Positions 4,650 to 46,480 of a stretch of 48,431 bases of DNA are shown one piece after another. The stretch is from a phage. Numbering within the stretch: position 1 is the stretch's first letter; every line of letters starts with the position of its first letter. A program made the translations under genes and the position numbers. The stretch lies in NCBI GenBank assembly GCA_012646845.1, contig GCA_012646845.1_4707.1; one strand, given 5' to 3'. The notes beneath the pieces are model-generated. The model was not told where the DNA came from and searched no databases. It saw only the letters and a program-made list of their open reading frames with translations.

Positions 4650-4795
4650 CTTGACATCCTCTTATATTGGATTGATTACAGTTATCTTAAATAGGCGATA
4701 AGATATCTTGCTCTTATCACCTAGGTTGCGTTTTGTTAATAACAAAACGCATCGCCTTAGTGACCTATGTCACTAAGGTAATATAGCCGTGAAAT
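4650..4795 (-). promoter_or_regulatory. conserved promoter/leader element copy A: CTATATTAC motif, two inserted hairpins, conserved 28-nt RBS leader
   Basis: 4650-4677 and 4777-4794 are identical to 32967-32994 and 33039-33056; copy A carries an extra ~51 nt (4726-4776) forming two perfect hairpins. Confidence 0.45.
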
Positions 4796-11950: not shown

Positions 11951-12520
11951 TCAACGATTCTTCATCACTTTACCCAGGCTTTCGATATTATCCCAAAAGC
12001 GATTTTTACTTGGCGCATCGCCAACGATAACCGACATCAAATCGCGACGTTCACGACTGATGATGCCCTGCGATTTCCAGATCACCATCGTCCAGCAAGC
12101 AGCCAGAACAAACAGATGGTTAATACTCGGTTTGGTTTGTGCGATGAACGCAAGCCATGCCCAGATACCGGTGTATACTACCGTCACTAAAAAGAGAGAG
12201 ATTGTTGCAACGACAACAACGAAGTTTTGGATGGCTGGCTGATTGGCGTTATCCTGAAAAGCGGTAAGATCAGGAAGATTACCTTCAACGGAACTCGTAT
12301 CATCGATTTCCAATTCTTCGATTTCTTTTCGTATGTCGGGAGCTAATCCGGCATCATCAAGATGCTTCTTTAACCGCTGAATACTTAATCGTTGTCCGAC
12401 AGGGATATTAATGTTGTCGTAACTATTAAGCGCATCAACCAGGGAGCGTCCGTCAACGAGAACCAAGCTCGCAGTACCCATCGTCTGCGGTTTTATTTTG
12501 TAAAGGTCTTTTACTTTCAT
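11951..12520 (-). CDS. hypothetical membrane protein
   Basis: ORF track; hydrophobic segments (VVVVATISLFLVTVVYTGIWAWLAFI). Confidence 0.6.
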   Translation of the reverse strand: MKVKDLYKIKPQTMGTASLVLVDGRSLVDALNSYDNINIPVGQRLSIQRLKKHLDDAGLAPDIRKEIEELEIDDTSSVEGNLPDLTAFQDNANQPAIQNFVVVVATISLFLVTVVYTGIWAWLAFIAQTKPSINHLFVLAACWTMVIWKSQGIISRERRDLMSVIVGDAPSKNRFWDNIESLGKVMKNR

Positions 12521-16705: not shown

Positions 16706-17209
16706 TTACTCGCTGACAACCTCAACGGAATTGGGATCGGCGATCAGCGCACGGTCGGTAGAACAATTGAAGAAGACCATGCCAACACCATCGCCGTTCG
16801 AGTTCAGGGTTGAACTTACGTAAGACAATGCTGGTTTATTCATACGGTAGAAGCGTTCGTTGGTGGTGGTATTGAACCCCAGATCAACGTAGTCTTTCAC
16901 CGTGGTGTACAACTGTGTGGACTCGAAAACGGTTACCGGAGAGTCAACGGTAAACTGACTACCTTCGTCCACTACCAGAACTTTATCGTTCCAGATTTCA
17001 GTGGTTGAGAACTTCGGTTTCCAGTGTTCGAATTCCTGGGTTGCTCCCCAGCAGGAATACACAGCGAGATCGCTGTTCTTCTCAACAGGTTTTAACCCCA
17101 CCAGTTGTGTCAGACCTTTATCCAGATTCGGTAAGCCTTCCAGTGTAGCACACCCACCCAGAGAAAGTACCATCAACATACCGAGAATAATCGCGCAAAG
17201 TTTCTTCAT
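16706..17209 (-). CDS. lipoprotein (signal peptide with lipobox LGGC)
   Basis: MKKLCAIILGMLMVLSLGGCATLEG; AAGGAAA SD. Confidence 0.75.
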   Translation of the reverse strand: MKKLCAIILGMLMVLSLGGCATLEGLPNLDKGLTQLVGLKPVEKNSDLAVYSCWGATQEFEHWKPKFSTTEIWNDKVLVVDEGSQFTVDSPVTVFESTQLYTTVKDYVDLGFNTTTNERFYRMNKPALSYVSSTLNSNGDGVGMVFFNCSTDRALIADPNSVEVVSE

Positions 17210-28175: not shown

Positions 28176-28230
28176 AAAAAAAAAAACAAAAATAGGAAAA
28201 CGGTGCTCATCCTTTTAGGGATGAGCACCG
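28176..28230 (-). terminator. canonical intrinsic terminator: 12-bp perfect stem followed by long U-tract on minus strand
   Basis: CGGTGCTCATCC-TTTTAG-GGATGAGCACCG with A-run 28176-28200 on plus strand. Confidence 0.75.
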
Positions 28231-28250
28231 CGTACCATTATATCGAATGA

Positions 28251-28829
28251 TTAGTAAGGAATCAGATCGTTAAGCTTTTCTTCTTCAATGACAAAGAAGT
28301 TGTTCTGGTCGTCTAAATCTGTTAACAGGACTTGTCCGACAGTAAAGCACGTGCCACCCTTCTTAGGCATCCATACCGGCTCATTCGTTACCTTATCGGG
28401 ATACCATTTGAAACGATTGGTATCTAAGAAGAACGCTGCTTTGTTCACTTTATCCGTTGATCGGTAACTTACTAACGCTGGCCACTCAATCCAGGTATTT
28501 GTGCATGGCACATGTAAAGGATACCATGCGCGCCAGCGTTTGCCCGGCTTGTTAGGATCAACCCAATACTCGGCAGTCAATACAGCATCTTTATAATGTT
28601 TCTGTATTAACATTTCGAGCACAAGCTCATTGCCTTTTGATGAATCTAAAGTCACTTCAGCCATATAAAGAGATTTAGGTAATCCAGACTGTTTTGTGGG
28701 CAGCGTTACGACACCGGTAACCAACGGTCTGCTCGGCTTACGCTTCTGTTCTTTCCGATGTGTGTAAAGAAATAGCCCGATAGCTGCGGCAACAAGTATA
28801 ATAAACAACACTACCTTAATCCAATTCAT
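28251..28829 (-). CDS. membrane-anchored hypothetical protein
   Basis: N-terminal TM helix MNWIKVVLFIILVAAAIGLFLY; ATGA overlap with upstream gene. Confidence 0.6.
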   Translation of the reverse strand: MNWIKVVLFIILVAAAIGLFLYTHRKEQKRKPSRPLVTGVVTLPTKQSGLPKSLYMAEVTLDSSKGNELVLEMLIQKHYKDAVLTAEYWVDPNKPGKRWRAWYPLHVPCTNTWIEWPALVSYRSTDKVNKAAFFLDTNRFKWYPDKVTNEPVWMPKKGGTCFTVGQVLLTDLDDQNNFFVIEEEKLNDLIPY

Positions 28830-29575
28830 TCGTCAATATCTCCTTCTACAAACAGAGTCAATTTGATTTCAGGGTCATAGAACATAGTAATCACACCATC
28901 TTGCTCTACTGAACGTTGCGCTGTCCATATTAACTGTTCATCCCGAATATCAAATTTATGCCGTTCGTCACTCACCACAGCTTCCGCATCAACGTAATGG
29001 TAAACATCACCGAGGGGATTCTCAATCCAGCCGCGTACCATCAAACGTTCTTTTTGTTTACGTGTAAAGAAGCGATAAGGATCTTCGCACGTGCGCCATA
29101 CATCCCCGTTCCCGCTGACCAGCTCATCATAAACTTTAGAGAGTTCGTCAGGTACCGGAATCAAAATGTTATCTTGATAGTTCGACCAGAAACGACGTAC
29201 ATCTTGGATCAACTCATCGTCCTGCAGTTTAATTACCGCGTCATTATAATCGATTTTAACAGTATCGATATCAAGGCGGGTAAACGGAAGAGCGTCTAGG
29301 TTTGCCACACTGACTTCAATCCGATCGTGATGCACATAAACCCACCCGTCAAACCAGCGGTACCCATCAGCTTGATATAACGTTGTGTGATATCTGACGA
29401 CGTTGATGTCTTCGAACGATTCCAATAAAGCTTTAGCTGCTAAAAGCGGTGAAAAGTTCTTTGATTGTCCTGGTTTACGTATCTCTTCTTTGATGAACAA
29501 TTTACCAAGCAGTGGGTGTTCGATAACAAAACCACAGGAAAGCATGATGCTTCCTTGATAGCGGGGTTCTTGCAT
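28826..29575 (-). CDS. hypothetical protein
   Basis: ORF track; GAGGAA SD. Confidence 0.6.
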   Translation of the reverse strand: MQEPRYQGSIMLSCGFVIEHPLLGKLFIKEEIRKPGQSKNFSPLLAAKALLESFEDINVVRYHTTLYQADGYRWFDGWVYVHHDRIEVSVANLDALPFTRLDIDTVKIDYNDAVIKLQDDELIQDVRRFWSNYQDNILIPVPDELSKVYDELVSGNGDVWRTCEDPYRFFTRKQKERLMVRGWIENPLGDVYHYVDAEAVVSDERHKFDIRDEQLIWTAQRSVEQDGVITMFYDPEIKLTLFVEGDIDE

Positions 29576-29751
29576 TTTCTATTCCTCAAACAAAAAGATT
29601 GTCTTTTACGCGACATGATTACAAGTACACAGGTTACTGAATTTCTGTAAAAGTTAATTTTCGTAAACTAAAAGAAAATGTATCCGTGTTTCCTGGTTCT
29701 TCCCCTCCACAGCCTCAGGAAGAGAAGAACCGTTTGCTAAGTTGTTATGTA

Positions 29752-30000
29752 TTAAAATGCGTTGATTGGACTGTTCAACGCTTTATCACGGATTTGAATC
29801 GCCGCCAGCATTGCTTTCTGGTACGAATCGTAAGCATCAACAGAAACAGTCGTATCAACCAATTCCTTTAATACTGATTCAGCCGCTTTTACGCGGACGC
29901 GGAACTTGGTGATTGCGTTATCTTTGTTGCGATAAACCGTGATATGGTGCAGCGGTTGAACTTTGGTTTTAACGGATTTAGTTGCTTTGATCGTTTTCAT
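29752..30000 (-). CDS. small basic hypothetical protein
   Basis: ORF track; AAGGAAA SD. Confidence 0.5.
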   Translation of the reverse strand: MKTIKATKSVKTKVQPLHHITVYRNKDNAITKFRVRVKAAESVLKELVDTTVSVDAYDSYQKAMLAAIQIRDKALNSPINAF

Positions 30001-30054
30001 GGTGATTTCCTTCTTTATTAGGATGATTACATTTAGTCAGTTTGACAGCATAAA

Positions 30055-30079
30055 CCCTTCCCGCTTTATGCAGGAAGGG
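30055..30079 (-). terminator. hairpin CCCTTCC...GGAAGGG downstream of hydrolase gene
   Basis: inverted repeat read directly. Confidence 0.4.
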
Positions 30080-30093
30080 CATACGGATTTGTT

Positions 30094-30591
30094 TTACGTG
30101 TGTCGTCGTTTACCAAAGAAAATATGATTGTCTACCACGGTGATATTGGTAGCGTGTTTTCTGAAATGTTTAGGGCGAAGATGTTTCGCGTTAAAGAATA
30201 CGGCTCCTCGTGTTGGATCGGCTTTACGGTAAGCAACAATGTCGTTATTGCGCAATGTTGCGACCTCTCGTGCTATCGCTCTTGCACGATTGAATGCAGC
30301 ATGATCGCGTATGACAATTCGTTGTTGTCTTGCCCAGGGGAATTGACCTCTTTGCAGTACGACGTCTCTGACGTTCGTAGGGAATCGGTAGTCCATAGAT
30401 CGATTATGTATTAAAAACGCCACGGAGTATTGCCCTTTTACAGATTCGCCTCTGGCTTCCATATACACAGCGCATGCGACGATCTCTTTCCGGCAATCGA
30501 TTCTAGGTCCTGCGTTCACCGACGCCTGACTTAACGGTGCGATAAACAACATTACAAGCCCTAAAACCAACGTGTGTAAAATACCTTGCAT
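30094..30591 (-). CDS. SleB/CwlJ-family cell-wall hydrolase with N-terminal signal peptide (candidate endolysin)
   Basis: CAVYMEARGESVKGQYSVAFLIHNRS...VVLQRGQFPWA matches the Hydrolase_2 core; N-term MQGILHTLVLGLVMLFIAPLSQA; start set to ATG 30591. Confidence 0.7.
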   Translation of the reverse strand: MQGILHTLVLGLVMLFIAPLSQASVNAGPRIDCRKEIVACAVYMEARGESVKGQYSVAFLIHNRSMDYRFPTNVRDVVLQRGQFPWARQQRIVIRDHAAFNRARAIAREVATLRNNDIVAYRKADPTRGAVFFNAKHLRPKHFRKHATNITVVDNHIFFGKRRHT

Positions 30592-30845
30592 CTTAATTAA
30601 CCTCACGATAAGGTGCTGTCCACTGGCGTCTTGATAACGCAACCCGTCTATCGGGTTGTTCTATTCAGCGGGCAGCAGGTTAGCGTCAGATGTTTGCCCG
30701 ACATCCACGACAGAAATAAACGGTACTGAAAATACGGTCTCCTCTGGTTTGGCAATAAACATAACGTTGGATAACAGAACCCATTTCCCGCATCCAACGC
30801 GGTAAAGGCGTACATCGTTTGAATTCATATAGTTTCTCAAAGATG

Positions 30846-31148
30846 TTAACCTCTACCGTCAAGCCATAAGTTGTATTTCTCGCGAGCGTTAGGATCACGA
30901 TAGATGCGACGATACCTTAATTCCGGTAATAATCCGGTTCGCACTAACTCGTCAGTTAACTTTCTACGACGTTCTACGCCGTTATGGATACGACGTAACT
31001 CACGAAAGTTAAGCGGCGTTTGTTTCATTAGAACCCCCATTACGATCGGGCGATGATCGATTTCATACAGCGATAATACACCACGTATTTCATCTAATAC
31101 CCGCTCGCGATCGATTAGTATTCGATCATGATATTTTAATTGTTCCAT
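30846..31148 (-). CDS. hypothetical protein
   Basis: ORF track only. Confidence 0.4.
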   Translation of the reverse strand: MEQLKYHDRILIDRERVLDEIRGVLSLYEIDHRPIVMGVLMKQTPLNFRELRRIHNGVERRRKLTDELVRTGLLPELRYRRIYRDPNAREKYNLWLDGRG

Positions 31149-31174
31149 AACAGTCGCTCTCGTTTCAGGGGGAG

Positions 31175-31378
31175 TTAAGTATTGTGTTTATTCCTACCTA
31201 CGTTCCTCAACAGTGTAACGATAACGAATACCGCCACCATCAAGAAGACGAACCATAACCCGACATTAATTCGGGCGGCCGGTACATCCACCATAAGGAG
31301 CATCGTCCCACAAAACCCAAGGACTATCCATACTAACATCATCCCTATCAACCCTCGCAACAACTTAAGCCAGATCAC
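31175..31378 (-). CDS. small membrane protein (two hydrophobic helices; holin-like candidate)
   Basis: GTG start preceded by AAGGAGAAG; MIWLKLLRGLIGMMLVWIVLGFCG...LWFVFLMVAVFVIVTLL. Confidence 0.5.
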   Translation of the reverse strand: MIWLKLLRGLIGMMLVWIVLGFCGTMLLMVDVPAARINVGLWFVFLMVAVFVIVTLLRNVGRNKHNT

Positions 31379-31551
31379 AAACTTCTCCTTACTTTCTCTG
31401 ATAAAGCGACGATTCTAATTTTAGAAACATCCCTAATGCGAATGCGAGTAATGACGCACGTACCCACATACCTCCTTGAAAACTGTTGTACAACATAAAG
31501 ACCAGAGCGATGCCGCCCATATGCAGGCGGCACTTATCGAACAGTGTTGGT

Positions 31552-31761
31552 TTATACATAGGAGATTAAACGTTGAATGATTTTTACTTTGCCTTTGCCT
31601 GGACCTTTCTTGCGACGATTCAACAGACGGATACGGTTTCCAATTACGGAATCACCATCATAATCAGCCTGGAACCGTGATAAAAAAGCAGGTTGTACCC
31701 GGTCGACACCAGGATTGCTATAGAAACGATTGAAACTTAAAAGATGGTTAGTTGGAATCAT
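31552..31761 (-). CDS. hypothetical protein
   Basis: ORF track; ATG at 31761 with AAGGA SD. Confidence 0.4.
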   Translation of the reverse strand: MIPTNHLLSFNRFYSNPGVDRVQPAFLSRFQADYDGDSVIGNRIRLLNRRKKGPGKGKVKIIQRLISYV

Positions 31762-31779
31762 TGTATTGTCCTTATTCAA

Positions 31780-32130
31780 TTATTTACCAAGATAGAGGTA
31801 TTCTCCGCCCTGAATAACACCGGTTGATGGGTCAACAAGTATGCGAACCCGTGCATAGGTCTTGAAAGAGGGGTTGAAAACTTCGAAGTCAGTCACTTTC
31901 AATTTCACGCTGGGGTTAATTGGGTTCTTAACTCCTGGAAGTTCTTTCGGTAATCCGAAGTCGACTCCATATTCTTCAAGGTCCGCTGGCGTCATGCTCT
32001 CCATGGCCATGTAGATTGCTTTTGCTTTATCGTAAACCTCTGGACTATCCAGCAATCCAGCCTGCGCTGAACCGACAACACTACCGAACAGAATAGCAAC
32101 AGCAACAAACAATTTAGTTAATGTTTTCAT
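31780..32130 (-). CDS. secreted hypothetical protein (signal peptide)
   Basis: MKTLTKLFVAVAILFGSVVGSAQA; AAGGAAA SD. Confidence 0.6.
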   Translation of the reverse strand: MKTLTKLFVAVAILFGSVVGSAQAGLLDSPEVYDKAKAIYMAMESMTPADLEEYGVDFGLPKELPGVKNPINPSVKLKVTDFEVFNPSFKTYARVRILVDPSTGVIQGGEYLYLGK

Positions 32131-32168
32131 GATCGTTTCCTTAATAACTTAAATAAACCAATTTAATA

Positions 32169-32591
32169 TTAACGTACGGCTGCTACGCTGTTAGCGCATG
32201 CCTGAATATCATCGGTATTTACGATGATGGTTTCGTTAAATGCACGAATACGCGCACGACGTGCTTCTTTAAGGCTGGCGATTGCGTTAGCAGCTTGGTC
32301 TGTATTCGCAAGGCTAATAACTGGGATCAAGCGCATGTCAGGACTGCAGATATTCAATGCTTGGTATACACGCCCATTGATTCCTACGGTATCAGACATC
32401 GGATAGTGCGCACGACATTGAAATTGACCCATGACAACAAGCGAACGATCGGAGATGCCAATCTGATAACGACCGTCTTCGCTGTAGGTGTAGCAGTTAT
32501 TCCCACGAGCCATCCAGTTAGCTTGTGCTTGTGCACTAACAAAAGCCAGGGTAGCGACGATAGCAAATACGATATTTTTGAACAGTTTCAT
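32169..32591 (-). CDS. secreted hypothetical protein (signal peptide)
   Basis: MKLFKNIVFAIVATLAFVSAQAQA; AAGGATC SD. Confidence 0.6.
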   Translation of the reverse strand: MKLFKNIVFAIVATLAFVSAQAQANWMARGNNCYTYSEDGRYQIGISDRSLVVMGQFQCRAHYPMSDTVGINGRVYQALNICSPDMRLIPVISLANTDQAANAIASLKEARRARIRAFNETIIVNTDDIQACANSVAAVR

Positions 32592-32609
32592 GATAAAGAT
32601 CCTTATTGA

Positions 32610-32642
32610 AATAAAAACGGTATAAAGCCCCCATTTAGGGGG
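32610..32642 (-). terminator. hairpin CCCCC-ATTTA-GGGGG followed by U-rich tract on minus strand
   Basis: read directly; lies just downstream of 32649..32966. Confidence 0.5.
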
Positions 32643-32648
32643 ACCTGA

Positions 32649-32966
32649 TTAGTTTGCACTTAAGAAATGACCCAGAACCGTTACGATTGGAAACAGTCCC
32701 GTAACCGTATTATCGCCCGAAAACATCATCTTTGAGTCGTTAACGGTGATGAAACGGATGTCGGTTGCAGACCCATCGATAGCGACAAAACGCATCGAGT
32801 TCGGTGGAAGATCCTCAACAACTTCCACGAGATGTTCACGATTTTCAAAGGCTTCTTTAACACGACGCATGAAACGAATCAATGTTCCTTCAGCGTCGGC
32901 TTCCAAATGACCTAGGATATCGCGATTATTACGAATAGCGAATACAGCCATTTTAAACATACACAT
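32649..32966 (-). CDS. hypothetical protein
   Basis: ORF track; conserved leader identical to that of 4227..4649. Confidence 0.6.
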   Translation of the reverse strand: MCMFKMAVFAIRNNRDILGHLEADAEGTLIRFMRRVKEAFENREHLVEVVEDLPPNSMRFVAIDGSATDIRFITVNDSKMMFSGDNTVTGLFPIVTVLGHFLSAN

Positions 32967-33056
32967 CTTGACATCCTCTTATATTGGATTGATTGCTAAT
33001 AATTCAAGGTGAAGCCAATGACTCCATTGCTTCACCTAGGTAATATAGCCGTGAAA
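32967..33056 (-). promoter_or_regulatory. conserved promoter/leader element copy B (CTATATTAC motif, hairpin, conserved RBS leader)
   Basis: 32967-32994 and 33039-33056 identical to copy A; motif overlaps stop codon of 33036..34028. Confidence 0.45.
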
Positions 33057-34028
33057 ATTAATGCATTGACTCACGTCTTTGCTACATGGGGGCTGAATCT
33101 CGTCGATGCGTTTAACCACAACCTCAGGGAAAAGTTGGAGGATTTCATCAGGTGGTGTCGTACCTTCTGTCCAACGATAACGTTCAACCTTTTCGATGCG
33201 TGGACTCCCTCCGACGTCAGCGATACGAAAGATACAGGCGATACCTAAATCGAAACATACGCTGTAAATATCTTCCGTGCCTCCTTTATCGGCAAGTATT
33301 TTCGCAAAATGCTCGTTATCGGGAAGAATGGCTAAATTACGGATACACCAAACATTATCACCCATTTCTTCAAGTTTTGGGTAGGTTAAAGTGTGCCCGT
33401 AGCATGTTAACCATCGATGATTTTCTAGGCGGAAGTCCTTATCTCCTGGCCGATAACCCAGTATCACCTCGGTGTAGAAGAGATTAGGCATATTGAGCAG
33501 TTCTCTAATCGTTGGACCGGTATGCTCCCAGAGACAGATTTGTTTACGGTCTATATCGTAATCTGTGACGTTACTCACCTCCCAACTTATCGTAAGTTCA
33601 TCGACAACGTGCCAACCTAAAGCATGTTCACCACCAAGCAGATTAACAATAGCTGCTATCTCGTGCTTGTCAAATACCCCCAAATTCTGCGGTGGTTGCA
33701 TCGTACGTAATGGCTCCCATAACGCACTGTAATCATAGAGCAAATGACGACATAAACTTTTTGTTAGGGGGGTATGTTCAGTAAACAGTGGAAGAATCAC
33801 CGTATCCAACAATGGACGTAATGGATGATTGTCGGGTGGCAACGAAGCGTATAGCCGACTTTCCTTTTTAGGAATGTCGTAACCAAACCCGTAACGCTCC
33901 GAAATGAGTGCAATCAACACTTTTGCTATGCGATTACGTAGCATGCGATGGATATCATCAGTGTAACAGAATTTCGGTCTGTTACCACAAACGAAGGTGA
34001 AGTATCTGGGCGTTAGCGCAGCCATCAT
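33036..34028 (-). CDS. hypothetical protein
   Basis: ORF track; GAGGGAAAG SD. Confidence 0.6.
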   Translation of the reverse strand: MMAALTPRYFTFVCGNRPKFCYTDDIHRMLRNRIAKVLIALISERYGFGYDIPKKESRLYASLPPDNHPLRPLLDTVILPLFTEHTPLTKSLCRHLLYDYSALWEPLRTMQPPQNLGVFDKHEIAAIVNLLGGEHALGWHVVDELTISWEVSNVTDYDIDRKQICLWEHTGPTIRELLNMPNLFYTEVILGYRPGDKDFRLENHRWLTCYGHTLTYPKLEEMGDNVWCIRNLAILPDNEHFAKILADKGGTEDIYSVCFDLGIACIFRIADVGGSPRIEKVERYRWTEGTTPPDEILQLFPEVVVKRIDEIQPPCSKDVSQCINFHGYIT

Positions 34029-40314: not shown

Positions 40315-42978
<2,664 letters not shown>

Positions 42979-46225: not shown

Positions 46226-46480
46226 TTATTCCGCACTTGTTTCCTTAACATGAACACATTCCGCATCGATAGTCACGCCGGTAGAACGATGGGTCTCGTT
46301 GGGAGAATCAAATCCGCCATTGAACAGCATCGCGAACGTGTTATTATCCATACGAGCAAAGGTCTCCGCAATACGATCGGGATGAAAATCGGTGCGGTTG
46401 ATGGTCGATTTCACAAAAACTCCTATAAACAATTTAATTATTGGTATTAAGATTAAAGCAGGATCTGCGGACAACAGCAT
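46226..46480 (-). CDS. hypothetical protein (start uncertain)
   Basis: ORF track; overlaps upstream gene end. Confidence 0.35.
   Translation of the reverse strand: MLLSADPALILIPIIKLFIGVFVKSTINRTDFHPDRIAETFARMDNNTFAMLFNGGFDSPNETHRSTGVTIDAECVHVKETSAE

Follow-up and report, generated by a model that had tools for sequence, protein, structure and literature searches.

A possible accessory envelope-targeted operon with a putatively Sec-exported SleB-like hydrolase in a Goslar-like jumbo phage of Escherichia coli

Introduction

SleB prefers a muramic-lactam cortex as its substrate, and in Bacillus spores it is kept inactive or stable by YpeB, a protein with PepSY domains. Unlike the spore target of SleB and CwlJ, the wall of a Gram-negative host has no such cortex. 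Among phage enzymes, Lys44 of phage fOg44 is a signal-peptide endolysin. In phage T4, Imm is a small inner-membrane protein and Sp is a secreted periplasmic inhibitor of incoming tail lysozyme, imm and sp both being early genes. Host lysis by nucleus-forming jumbo phages is mostly poorly understood. The lysis cassette of phiKZ was defined only in 2026 and consists of overlapping i-spanin and o-spanin genes with a lipobox, together with genes for a soluble transglycosylase and for a class III holin that has one TMD and a cytoplasmic domain (PMC12894885). The annotation of Escherichia phage Goslar offers two "endolysins" for lysis and nothing more.

Here we describe a block of co-directional genes that spans about 3 kb of the minus strand (roughly 33056 down to 30048) of a 48,431-nucleotide stretch of phage DNA, hereafter the window. 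The window is 91% identical to Goslar at the nucleotide level and, judged by this identity, its source is a Goslar-like nucleus-forming jumbo phage of E. coli. All four features that had led to the initial annotation of this block as a possible lysis region were found in the sequence, and they lie on the minus strand (Table 1).

Results

Table 1. Features of the block, listed in the 5' to 3' direction of the minus strand; positions are those of the window.
Feature	Position	Strand	Description
Promoter motif TTTCACGGCTATATTACCTAGGTGA	33030..33056	-	Candidate early promoter motif of the virion RNA polymerase type; lies 74 nt ahead of the p105 start codon
p105	32649..32966	-	First gene of the block; soluble; corresponds to Goslar gp105
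p140	32169..32591	-	Putative periplasmic protein, export through Sec predicted (AQA↓N signal); makes up the first half of the p140/p116 module
p116	31780..32130	-	Putative periplasmic protein, export through Sec predicted (AQA↓G signal); makes up the second half of the module
p69	31552..31761	-	Small, very basic, soluble (pI 11); corresponds to Goslar gp102
p56	31389..31559	-	Doubtful 56-codon hydrophobic ORF; overlaps a hairpin (31512..31531) with a TTTATG element behind it (~31491..31499)
p67	31175..31378	-	Predicted small inner-membrane protein, two hydrophobic segments, basic C-terminal tail
p100	30846..31148	-	Basic soluble protein in a hypervariable, mosaic spot
Ultra-conserved block	30640..30860	-	Directly upstream of the hydrolase; holds a 55-codon ORF (30661..30828)
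Hydrolase	30094..30591	-	Peptidoglycan hydrolase of the SleB/CwlJ family (Hydrolase_2); predicted signal peptide at the N-terminus; its gene is the last in the block
Terminator-like hairpin, then TTTATGCTG	30048..30083	-	Directly after the hydrolase; closes the block

The block starts at a chimallivirus early-type promoter motif and is thus possibly an early operon. In the intergenic upstream regions of Goslar, TATATTA is enriched 19-fold and ATATTAC 14-fold, and the extended motif occurs in seven copies, every one of them on the minus strand and intergenic as read from the coordinates; one copy sits 73 nt upstream of the nuclear-shell gene. The motif upstream of p105 is kept in the relatives L011-L015. 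AT-rich motifs of such a type mark early operons in jumbo phages that encode RNA polymerases (PMC7598289). A full-text literature search for TATATTAC returned results dominated by unrelated papers, and a sigma-70 promoter scan was uninformative (fewer sites than in shuffles), as expected for a phage with its own RNA polymerases. At the other end, the terminator-like hairpin has a dG of -23.7 kcal/mol (z = -5.5; none of 200 shuffles folds equally well) and is present in all relatives, where the stem sequences differ yet still pair. Goslar holds eight hairpin-TTTATGC elements, four of which adjoin terminators annotated in the Goslar record.

Topology was called from Kyte-Doolittle (KD) hydropathy together with the -3/-1 rule. 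Proteins whose N-terminus holds a hydrophobic segment are clustered in this part of the genome: in Goslar, 7 out of about 14 fall in 13 consecutive genes of a total of 265 (hypergeometric P = 3e-7; 8e-5 once corrected for position). With the window only, 5 out of 8 fall in 12 of 69 genes, a value (P = 3e-3) that loses significance on correction. Two genes of the block encode soluble proteins with little else to characterize them, namely p105 (13 synonymous and 7 nonsynonymous codon changes relative to Goslar; a weak match to PHROG 14624) and p69, which has AAGGA 8 nt upstream of its ATG, lacks a hydrophobic segment and is found in all relatives. Otherwise, Pfam and PHROGs gave no match for the small proteins of the block beyond the hydrolase. 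PADLOC gave zero matches for ten block proteins, and so did an Rfam scan of 29500..33200 (E ≤ 1).

The hydrolase corresponds to Goslar gp098, which is there annotated as "endolysin". It matches Pfam Hydrolase_2 (PF07486; E = 4.4e-16, 59.8 bits with a cutoff of 27) over the full length of the domain (1-100/100), as well as PHROG 938 ("endolysin"), and its top PDB matches are the SleB structures 4F55 and 4FET. The catalytic motif YxEARGE is present as YMEARGE, which aligns with YGESRGE of both structures, and E45 and E49 within it are unchanged in seven homologues. The start codon is ATG 30591 (165 aa), preceded by GAGG at 9 nt, and this form is used in Goslar and by all gene callers. An alternative start at TTG 30642 was rejected, as the upstream extension is thrown out of frame by indels in Goslar, L013, L014 and L015. 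The N-terminus (MQGILHTLVLGLVMLFIAPLSQA↓SV; KD mean of 2.08 over 19 residues) has a hydrophobic core, some 17 residues long, and then SQA↓S, in keeping with the -3/-1 rule, while the n-region is without a basic residue. The proposal of a SleB/CwlJ-type enzyme with an export signal of its own is thus borne out by the PF07486 match, the YMEARGE motif and the hydrophobic N-terminus with its possible SQA↓S site.

A SAR endolysin reading of this N-terminus was considered and rejected. The best 17-mer of the hydrolase is 71% LIVFM and 18% GAST, compared with 47-59% GAST in what we take to be the P1 Lyz and R21 sequences, and no K or R precedes the segment. SAR domains are recognized by a TMD that is weakly hydrophobic, has a high Gly/Ala/Ser/Thr content and comes after two to three basic residues (PMC9239132). 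Searching the literature for SAR endolysins of SleB type gave no example. These sequence features support an N-terminus of signal-peptide type and not of SAR type. The initial annotation had proposed either a Sec-exported endolysin or a periplasm-targeted virion enzyme; the export signal stands, as one of signal-peptide type, while a role in the virion is improbable, since a protein that leaves the cytoplasm could hardly enter particles assembled there.

Homologues of the hydrolase occur in 1155 phage records; a word-indexed protein search returned close relatives only. Those of a Sugarlandvirus, of Vequintavirinae phage A73 and of Salmonella phage Arash all have classic cleavable signal peptides, and in these three phages no annotated lysis gene lies within 3 kb of the homologue. 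In A73, the hydrolase gene shares 4 nt with a gene downstream of it whose 70-aa product has two hydrophobic segments, which hints at a functional pair of hydrolase and membrane protein. Phapecoctaviruses have Phage_lysozyme and Hydrolase_2 together (PMC10793346).

Other wall enzymes are encoded elsewhere in Goslar. The product of gp024 is a signal-less GH108+PG_binding_3 protein (PHROG 315, endolysin) whose domains begin at residue 21, and gp204 is a tail protein with a lysozyme domain. Wall enzymes of the Goslar type can therefore be sorted into three, i.e., a canonical cytoplasmic endolysin, a tail lysin and a putatively Sec-exported SleB-type enzyme. On the best reading, the block hydrolase is a second, accessory wall enzyme next to the canonical GH108+PG_binding_3 endolysin. 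Its context, that is, the early-type motif and the other, canonical endolysin, would argue against it being the enzyme that finally lyses the host. The Goslar annotation contains neither a holin nor a spanin. A genome-wide lipobox scan of Goslar, embedded ORFs included, gave one credible lipoprotein, gp088 (window 16706..17209), which lies outside the block and does not adjoin an i-spanin-like gene. [quoted passage not shown] BLASTP showed no similarity of this protein and its neighbour to the phiKZ holin gp142 and regulator gp143, so that the resemblance to the phiKZ holin is topological only.

The proteins p116 (MKTLTKLFVAVAILFGSVVGSAQA↓G) and p140 (MKLFKNIVFAIVATLAFVSAQAQA↓N) had been described as small signal-peptide proteins, in agreement with their signal-peptide-like N-termini and AQA sites. 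In predicted structures, p140 models as an IalB-like beta-sandwich and p116 as a cystatin/PepSY-like alpha+beta domain that is also colicin-M-immunity-like, with no Pfam match and about 10% sequence identity to IalB (PDB 3DTD; PF06776) and cystatin/PepSY. A PepSY/cystatin-like assignment of p116 was to rest on a profile match and a helix packed on a four-strand antiparallel sheet. The four Cys of p140 are invariant in distant homologues. A BFVD search gave one match, an uncharacterised Klebsiella jumbo-phage protein. The models suggest binding- or inhibitor-like folds and not spanin-like ones. For IalB (Bartonella invasion-associated locus B) itself, we know of no established biochemical function.

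Among 50,697 phage records, tblastn with p116 and p140 found Goslar only, and a narrower p116 alignment search found one bacterial locus. HMMER representatives showed that p140 and p116 recur as an adjacent gene pair on genomic islands of E. coli, where they are once fused (protein P0018). This natural fusion ties p140 and p116 together, and the best reading is that they form one two-part periplasmic module. The place of the pair on the integrative islands is the accessory region that follows a WYL regulator, and the islands (contexts L016, L017, L021, L022, L025-27) carry no lysis genes. In L017, TIR and AbiGi genes are near the pair, while in L022 the pair is followed by antirestriction, RadC and CbeA/CbtA genes. 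The suggestion that p116 and p140 are spanin-like partners does not hold, given that both lack a lipobox, a membrane anchor after the signal and a coiled coil, that the models are globular and that the islands are free of lysis genes. Neither protein resembles an i-spanin (signal-peptide-type N-termini, no long coiled coil) or an o-spanin (no lipobox in either), and the combination of an N-terminal lipobox and a C-terminal TMD typical of unimolecular spanins is absent from every ORF in 30094..32966.

The third part of the block holds small membrane proteins and a variable spot. The 67-aa p67 follows a strong SD (AAGGAG 6 nt before its GTG start) and was rightly described as a two-helix membrane protein, with hydropathy peaks of KD 2.35 and 2.89 and the C-terminus RNVGRNKHNT. 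It has the shape of a holin (small, at least one TMD, charged C-terminal tail). No match to it was found in Pfam or PHROGs (E ≤ 0.1 or 0.01), including any holin family, or in PADLOC, and tblastn against the 50,697 phage records found it in Goslar-like phages only. No alignment was obtained with the 70-aa two-segment protein of A73. Its identity to the Goslar protein is 76% (aa), compared with 91-97% for the flanking genes, and 15 synonymous and 23 nonsynonymous changes mark it as fast-evolving. Resemblance of p67 to a holin or to Imm is one of shape only. Between p67 and the hydrolase lie p100 and a 254-nt spacer. The p100 gene is 62% identical to Goslar at the nucleotide level, and its product is 94% identical to that of L013; about 340 nt at the p67/p100 junction are present in Goslar only, and Goslar and L013/L014 carry between p67 and p100 an extra gene, gp100, with four hydrophobic peaks (four-TM). 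The coding status of p56 is doubtful: its substitutions relative to Goslar fall 3/4/3 by codon position (2 synonymous, 8 nonsynonymous), its C-terminal half swaps hydrophobic for hydrophobic residues in comparison with L013, and it is called as a gene in L013-L015, where the hairpin-TTTATGCTG element is conserved. The best reading takes p67, the gp100 of relatives and perhaps p56 to be small proteins of the inner membrane that evolve fast.

At 30592..30845, the spacer that immediately precedes the hydrolase gene shares 98.8% identity with Goslar, compared with 62-92% for the flanking genes. About 200 nt of it are nearly invariant in six phages, and conservation stops at the stop codon of the 55-codon ORF, which shows five substitutions, all nonsynonymous by our own reading of the alignment. 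The conserved spacer folds with z = -2.9, is single copy in the genome and has no Rfam match. A tblastn match of the ORF in Salmonella phage pSal-SNUABM-04 (E = 0.5) was rejected as spurious because it lies inside a gene of more than 1,600 codons. The spacer might hold the hydrolase's own promoter, and the hairpin with TTTATG in p56 (31491..31531) might end an early transcript or start a later one. If the hairpin acts as a break, or the spacer as a promoter, p67, p100 and the hydrolase could be expressed later.

Discussion

We read the block as an accessory operon that is directed at the envelope, may be expressed early and includes a muralytic enzyme exported through Sec, and not as a classical lysis cassette, at a probability of roughly 0.5. 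This reading builds on the domains, hydrophobic N-termini, synteny, fusion, motifs and terminator hairpin described above; from these we infer the early timing, the export and cleavage and the physiological role of the products. The hydrolase would pass through Sec by means of its own cleavable-type signal peptide and would thus reach the peptidoglycan without a holin. From the periplasm it may loosen or remodel the sacculus over a long infection, its activity being held back by expression level, membrane energisation or co-exported partners. Goslar-infected cells bulge, according to the legend of Fig. S1E of a preprint (10.1101/2021.10.25.465362). Sacculus loosening would fit this bulging and could prime the wall for final lysis; the link between hydrolase and bulging is only a correlation.

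That the genes form an atypical lysis cassette seems rather unlikely. In such a cassette, p67 would be a holin of class II or of the pinholin type; once triggered, it would collapse the membrane potential and thereby activate the already exported hydrolase, in a Lys44-like manner, while the small neighbours would adjust the timing or the disruption of the outer membrane. An exported muralytic enzyme and a two-segment protein with a charged C-terminus do lie on one strand, three genes apart, and such a pairing recurs in A73; however, p67 falls in no holin family and has no similarity to the A73 protein. Likewise, the annotation of gp098 as endolysin and the absence of any annotated holin or spanin in Goslar would suit a cassette, and the hairpin with TTTATG upstream of p67 could be a separate, later transcription start, but the block as a whole lies behind an early-type motif, a canonical soluble endolysin is encoded elsewhere and p116 and p140 are without any spanin feature. 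The one-TMD protein at 11951..12520, conserved in enterobacterial relatives and beside annotated spanins in Moabite, also speaks against a cassette in the block, as does the model relative phiKZ, which has a classical one with a one-TMD class III holin (PMC12894885).

A module for superinfection exclusion or envelope defence, comparable to T4 Imm and Sp, is equally not what we would expect. Here p140/p116 would bind or block the machinery with which an incoming phage or conjugative element penetrates the envelope, p67 and gp100 would block DNA entry and the hydrolase would be unrelated. The early-type promoter motif agrees with such a role, and so do the islands on which p140/p116 are accompanied by TIR and AbiGi (L017) or by antirestriction, RadC and CbeA/CbtA (L022). 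The membrane-protein genes are hypervariable and are gained or lost between close relatives, as arms-race genes would be, and the cystatin/PepSY and colicin-M-immunity-like fold predicted for p116 is typical of periplasmic inhibitors. We regard it as very improbable that p116, alone or with p140, is a dedicated periplasmic partner that keeps the hydrolase inactive or stable until release, as YpeB does for SleB. Hardly more probable is a wider scheme, an early "periplasm programme" in which the Sec-exported SleB-like enzyme is restrained by the mobile module of p140 (IalB-like) and p116 (PepSY/cystatin-like); the island copies would then neutralise foreign wall hydrolases, e.g., incoming tail lysins, and the phage would gain controlled wall loosening. 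If true, it would parallel, in a Gram-negative setting, the pairing of SleB with YpeB, and the cell could bulge around the phage nucleus ahead of lysis.

With the wall enzymes of the Goslar type sorted into three, whether jumbo phages remodel the sacculus before lysis becomes directly testable, and so does the purpose of the widespread signal-peptide Hydrolase_2 proteins in large virulent phages. The p140/p116 pair adds an uncharacterised two-protein module common to a virulent phage and to E. coli integrative islands. Even if the block is ordinary accessory cargo, the annotation is corrected, in that neither p116 nor p140 is a spanin and gp098 is not to be taken for granted as the lysis endolysin.

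Among the described systems, the Bacillus spore-cortex enzymes SleB and CwlJ share with the phage hydrolase the catalytic domain family and the Glu of YxE(A/S)RGE. The phage hydrolase differs from them in lacking the N-terminal PG_binding_1, in place of which it has a predicted Sec signal peptide, and, compared with SleB, it adjoins no ypeB homologue detectable by sequence. Lys44 of the Oenococcus phage fOg44 and SAR endolysins, among them P1 Lyz, phage 21 R and Mu gp22, take a Sec route to the wall without a holin channel, as is predicted for the hydrolase of the block, and likewise have a small membrane protein nearby. In contrast to SAR domains, the segment of the phage hydrolase is strongly hydrophobic, with a possible SQA↓S site and no basic residues; in contrast to both groups of enzymes, it follows an early-type motif in a lineage that also has a canonical soluble endolysin, and its lytic role is putative. 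The phiKZ cassette (gp141/141.1/142/143/144) resembles the block as a set of small envelope-directed genes beside a wall enzyme in a nucleus-forming jumbo phage, whereas none of its features, i.e., the spanin pair, the class III holin and the soluble transglycosylase, is present in 30094..32591 (PMC12894885). For p67, p116 and p140, neither PHROG or PADLOC matches nor sequence or fold similarity to Imm and Sp were detected. What the block shares with T4 Imm/Sp is the combination of a small inner-membrane protein with a secreted periplasmic protein, together with an early timing that is suggested here by the promoter motif.

Gene map and predicted transcriptional signals

Across 95% of its length, the 7-kb stretch around the putative lysis region is 91% identical in nucleotide sequence to Escherichia phage vB_EcoM_Goslar, a nucleus-forming jumbo phage, and every gene in it is carried by the minus strand. 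The window lacks Goslar gp096 (166 aa, PHROG 7413), which lies 3' of the hydrolase gene in Goslar, with a junction near 29665; it also lacks, at 31149..31185, the four-TM gp100 that separates p67 and p100 in Goslar (111547..111918). The DNA of the p100 ORF is 62% identical to Goslar and its protein 94% identical to that of a more distant lineage (L013). Judged by its sequence, the region is a mosaic. On a genome-wide count in Goslar, envelope-directed genes cluster significantly in this region: a run of 13 genes, out of 265, contains 7 of about 14 (corrected P ~8e-5).

Coordinates of genes, predicted signals and candidate ORFs (window unless Goslar is stated)
Feature	Position	Strand	Goslar counterpart
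Hydrolase	30094..30591	-	gp098, annotated 'endolysin'
p100	30846..31148	-	gp099
p67	31175..31378	-	gp101
p69	31552..31761	-	gp102
p116	31780..32130	-	gp103
p140	32169..32591	-	gp104
TTTCACGGCTATATTACYTNGGTGA copies, window	33030..33056, 4768..4793	-	
TTTCACGGCTATATTACYTNGGTGA copies, Goslar	2575, 113805, 142808, 160799, 166077, 172986, 201952	-	
Hairpin after hydrolase	30048..30083	-	
Hairpin within p56	31491..31531	-	
Conserved spacer block	30640..30860	-	
55-codon ORF	30661..30828		
Strong terminator	28200..28231		
189-aa protein	11951..12520	-	
Lipoprotein	16706..17209	-	
192-aa protein	28251..28829	-	
94-aa protein	42694..42978	-	
84-aa protein	46226..46480	-	

De novo k-mer enrichment showed TATATTA(C) to be 14- to 19-fold enriched in Goslar intergenic regions. 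The extended motif TTTCACGGCTATATTACYTNGGTGA has seven copies in Goslar, one of them 73 nt 5' of the nuclear-shell (chimallin) gene, and its TATATTAC core is also found at AT-rich intergenic sites of phiKZ. Its copy at the head of the block in the window is located 74 nt 5' of the p105 ORF and is kept there in all relatives. In Goslar-like phages TTTCACGGCTATATTACYTNGGTGA probably serves as the early promoter, used by the virion RNA polymerase. Right after the hydrolase stop codon, an 11-bp GC-rich hairpin is followed by TTTATGCTG (dG -23.7 kcal/mol, z -5.5); in relatives the stem sequence differs while pairing is preserved. Goslar has eight hairpin-TTTATGC elements 5' of genes, 4/8 beside terminators annotated in the Goslar record. 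With an early-type promoter motif at the start and a terminator at the end, the genes from p105 through the hydrolase are therefore taken to form one block.

The early-type motif does not fix the timing of the p67-hydrolase half, because a second hairpin with a TTTATG element lies within the doubtful p56 ORF and the spacer 5' of the hydrolase is conserved; either might terminate transcription internally or act as a second promoter. A conserved GCYG follows the T-run of the hairpin elements (TTTATGCYG), and the TATG core marks phiKZ late transcription starts, together suggesting combined terminator-promoter elements. Identity to Goslar is 98.8% over the 254-nt spacer, of which about 200 nt hardly vary among six Goslar-like phages whose flanking genes differ by 8-38%. 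This block folds better than shuffles (z=-2.9), has no match in Rfam and contains a 55-codon ORF with 5/5 substitutions nonsynonymous (alignment read by eye). Candidate roles for it are a leader or regulatory RNA, a promoter region and a very short gene.

The SleB/CwlJ-type hydrolase

The hydrolase matches Pfam Hydrolase_2 (E=4.4e-16, well over the curated threshold) and PHROG 938 'endolysin'. Among solved structures it comes closest to 4F55 and 4FET, SleB enzymes that lyse the spore cortex, with YMEARGE aligned to their YGESRGE motif, which bears out the family assignment of the initial annotation. Its E45 and E49 are invariant across seven homologues, and relative to Goslar it has 17 synonymous and 15 nonsynonymous changes, a weaker constraint than in p140, p116 and p105. 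The TTG start at 30642 chosen there is wrong: the ATG at 30591 has GAGG nine bases 5', the resulting 165-aa form is called in Goslar and by independent gene callers, and the frame of the upstream extension is broken by indels in Goslar and in the divergent Goslar-like L013, L014 and L015.

The N-terminus of the 165-aa form (MQGILHTLVLGLVMLFIAPLSQA|SV) is strongly hydrophobic (L/I/V/F/M 71%, G/A/S/T 18%), carries no basic residues and precedes a possible -3/-1 cleavage site. For SAR domains, 2-3 basic residues and a core of weak hydrophobicity are typical (PMC9239132). Homologues encoded by a T5-like Sugarlandvirus (...HAQA|K), Vequintavirinae A73 (...VTYA|K) and Salmonella phage Arash (...PVLA|S) have predicted signal peptides of textbook form. 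The composition, the lack of basic residues and these homologues argue against a SAR domain, and for the same reasons the family appears to be exported via a signal peptide, in line with the export signal originally proposed. Among phages that infect Gram-negative hosts, Hydrolase_2 lysins with signal peptides are common (PMC8223927), and Phapecoctaviruses have both Phage_lysozyme and Hydrolase_2 proteins (PMC10793346).

Predicted secreted pair and small membrane proteins

Both p116 and p140 have N-termini typical of signal peptides, ending in AQA, so that their earlier prediction as secreted proteins holds; together with p105 they are under purifying selection (substitution pattern vs Goslar). 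Matches by tblastn were confined to Goslar-like phages, and large protein collections yielded distant p116 relatives. A copy 63% identical to p116, in the same gene order, is present in lineage L013-L015, an E. coli chromosomal protein is 52% identical, and several further relatives are signal-peptide proteins of roughly 110 aa. In a 336-aa protein (P0018) the first 140 residues align to p140 (BLASTP E=4e-8), all four cysteines matching in position, and the last 60 are p116-like. Enterobacterial integrative islands carry a p116-like gene directly downstream of a p140-like one, just downstream of a WYL-domain regulator; one of these genes encodes a lipobox, and RefSeq labels the proteins hypothetical. 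DUF932, antirestriction, RadC and CbeA/CbtA genes lie downstream of the pair in L022, and TIR and AbiGi genes near it in L017. On an island of E. coli GCA_013055565.1 (L016:416-3142), PatB-like (NCBIfam E=2e-65) and Ape1-like peptidoglycan O-acetylation genes are directly 5' of the p116 homologue; among 5,426 complete E. coli genomes, none matches >29% of this stretch. A phosphoethanolamine transferase and an integrase come after the homologue in L016. Because of the conserved gene pair and the natural fusion, we propose that p140 and p116 would act as one periplasmic module, and this putative module is not tied to lysis genes.

The proposal that p116 and p140 are spanin-like partners was rejected, since they have no lipobox, membrane anchor or coiled coil and a genome-wide scan placed the sole credible lipoprotein (MKKLCAIILGMLMVLSLGGC..., 167 aa, PHROG 9559) elsewhere. 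Its gene is directly 3' of a tail-fibre assembly gene, with no i-spanin-like gene adjoining. By analogy with T5 Llp and phi80 Cor, which are receptor-blocking exclusion lipoproteins, it could serve in exclusion, or it could be an orphan o-spanin.

The p67 product, with two hydrophobic segments and a basic tail, is still predicted to be a two-helix membrane protein and is fast-evolving (15 synonymous, 23 nonsynonymous changes vs Goslar). The substitution pattern of p56, a 56-codon ORF between p69 and p67, is not coding-like. Two further small proteins encoded among non-structural genes of the window are predicted to be membrane proteins, the 94-aa one with two hydrophobic segments and the 84-aa one with a single segment. 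The 192-aa protein, whose gene lies three genes 3' of that for the hydrolase and closely precedes a strong terminator, has an N-terminal TMD and immediately a basic stretch, HRKEQKRKPSRP; it is thus predicted to lie N-out/C-in with a cytoplasmic domain of 170 aa, a topology shared with the Mu releasin gp25. It matches neither DUF2730 nor any other Pfam family.

Accessory operon or lysis cassette

An accessory envelope-directed operon, not the lysis cassette, is the best-supported reading, with a probability of about 0.5. A Sec-exported SleB-type muralytic enzyme would get to the wall without a holin, p140/p116 would be a mobile two-protein periplasmic module, and small fast-evolving inner-membrane proteins would be the third component. 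The enzyme might plausibly prime the wall for lysis; loosening of the wall during a long infection is also plausible, because Goslar-infected cells bulge (10.1101/2021.10.25.465362).

A genuine but atypical cassette of Sec-endolysin and pinholin seems unlikely. In Escherichia phage A73 (L003:2980-3704) the next gene downstream shares 4 nt with the hydrolase gene and encodes 70 aa with two hydrophobic segments, a product with no sequence relationship to p67. Translation of the exported wall enzyme and that of a small membrane protein may thus be coupled in Vequintavirinae, which favours a hydrolase-membrane protein pairing. A lysis gene is annotated within 3 kb of the signal-peptide hydrolase in 0/3 other large phages inspected, and in the T5-like one of these its neighbours are RNase H, exonuclease and tRNA genes, which from T5 biology we take to be early territory. 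Similarly doubtful is an exclusion module like T4 Imm/Sp with the hydrolase a bystander. An enzyme-inhibitor pair in the manner of SleB-YpeB is the least probable.

The hydrolase of the proposed accessory operon was annotated before and is not new. New are the operon boundaries and probable early timing, as predicted here; the 'secreted partners' as a conserved pair or fusion common to E. coli islands, not spanins; a hypervariable membrane-protein spot; and the ultra-conserved spacer 5' of the hydrolase.

Besides gp098, the full Goslar annotation has two peptidoglycan-hydrolase proteins, gp024 (211 aa, GH108+PG_binding_3, no signal peptide, PHROG 315 endolysin, among structural genes) and gp204 (a 2,252-aa tail protein with a lysozyme domain), and no annotated holin or spanin. 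In phiKZ, a classical lysis cassette was experimentally shown, with an overlapping i-/o-spanin pair, a regulator and a soluble endolysin, and the holin is of class III, with one TMD and a cytoplasmic domain (PMC12894885). A candidate for the true holin of the window phage is the 189-aa protein, which has one central TMD (~100 aa before, 70 aa after) and conserved counterparts in Serratia PCH45, Erwinia PhiEaH1 and Moabite-like phages; in Serratia phage Moabite the homologue adjoins annotated i- and o-spanins. The topology of the 189-aa protein resembles that of gp142, the class III holin of phiKZ, to which BLASTP finds no similarity.
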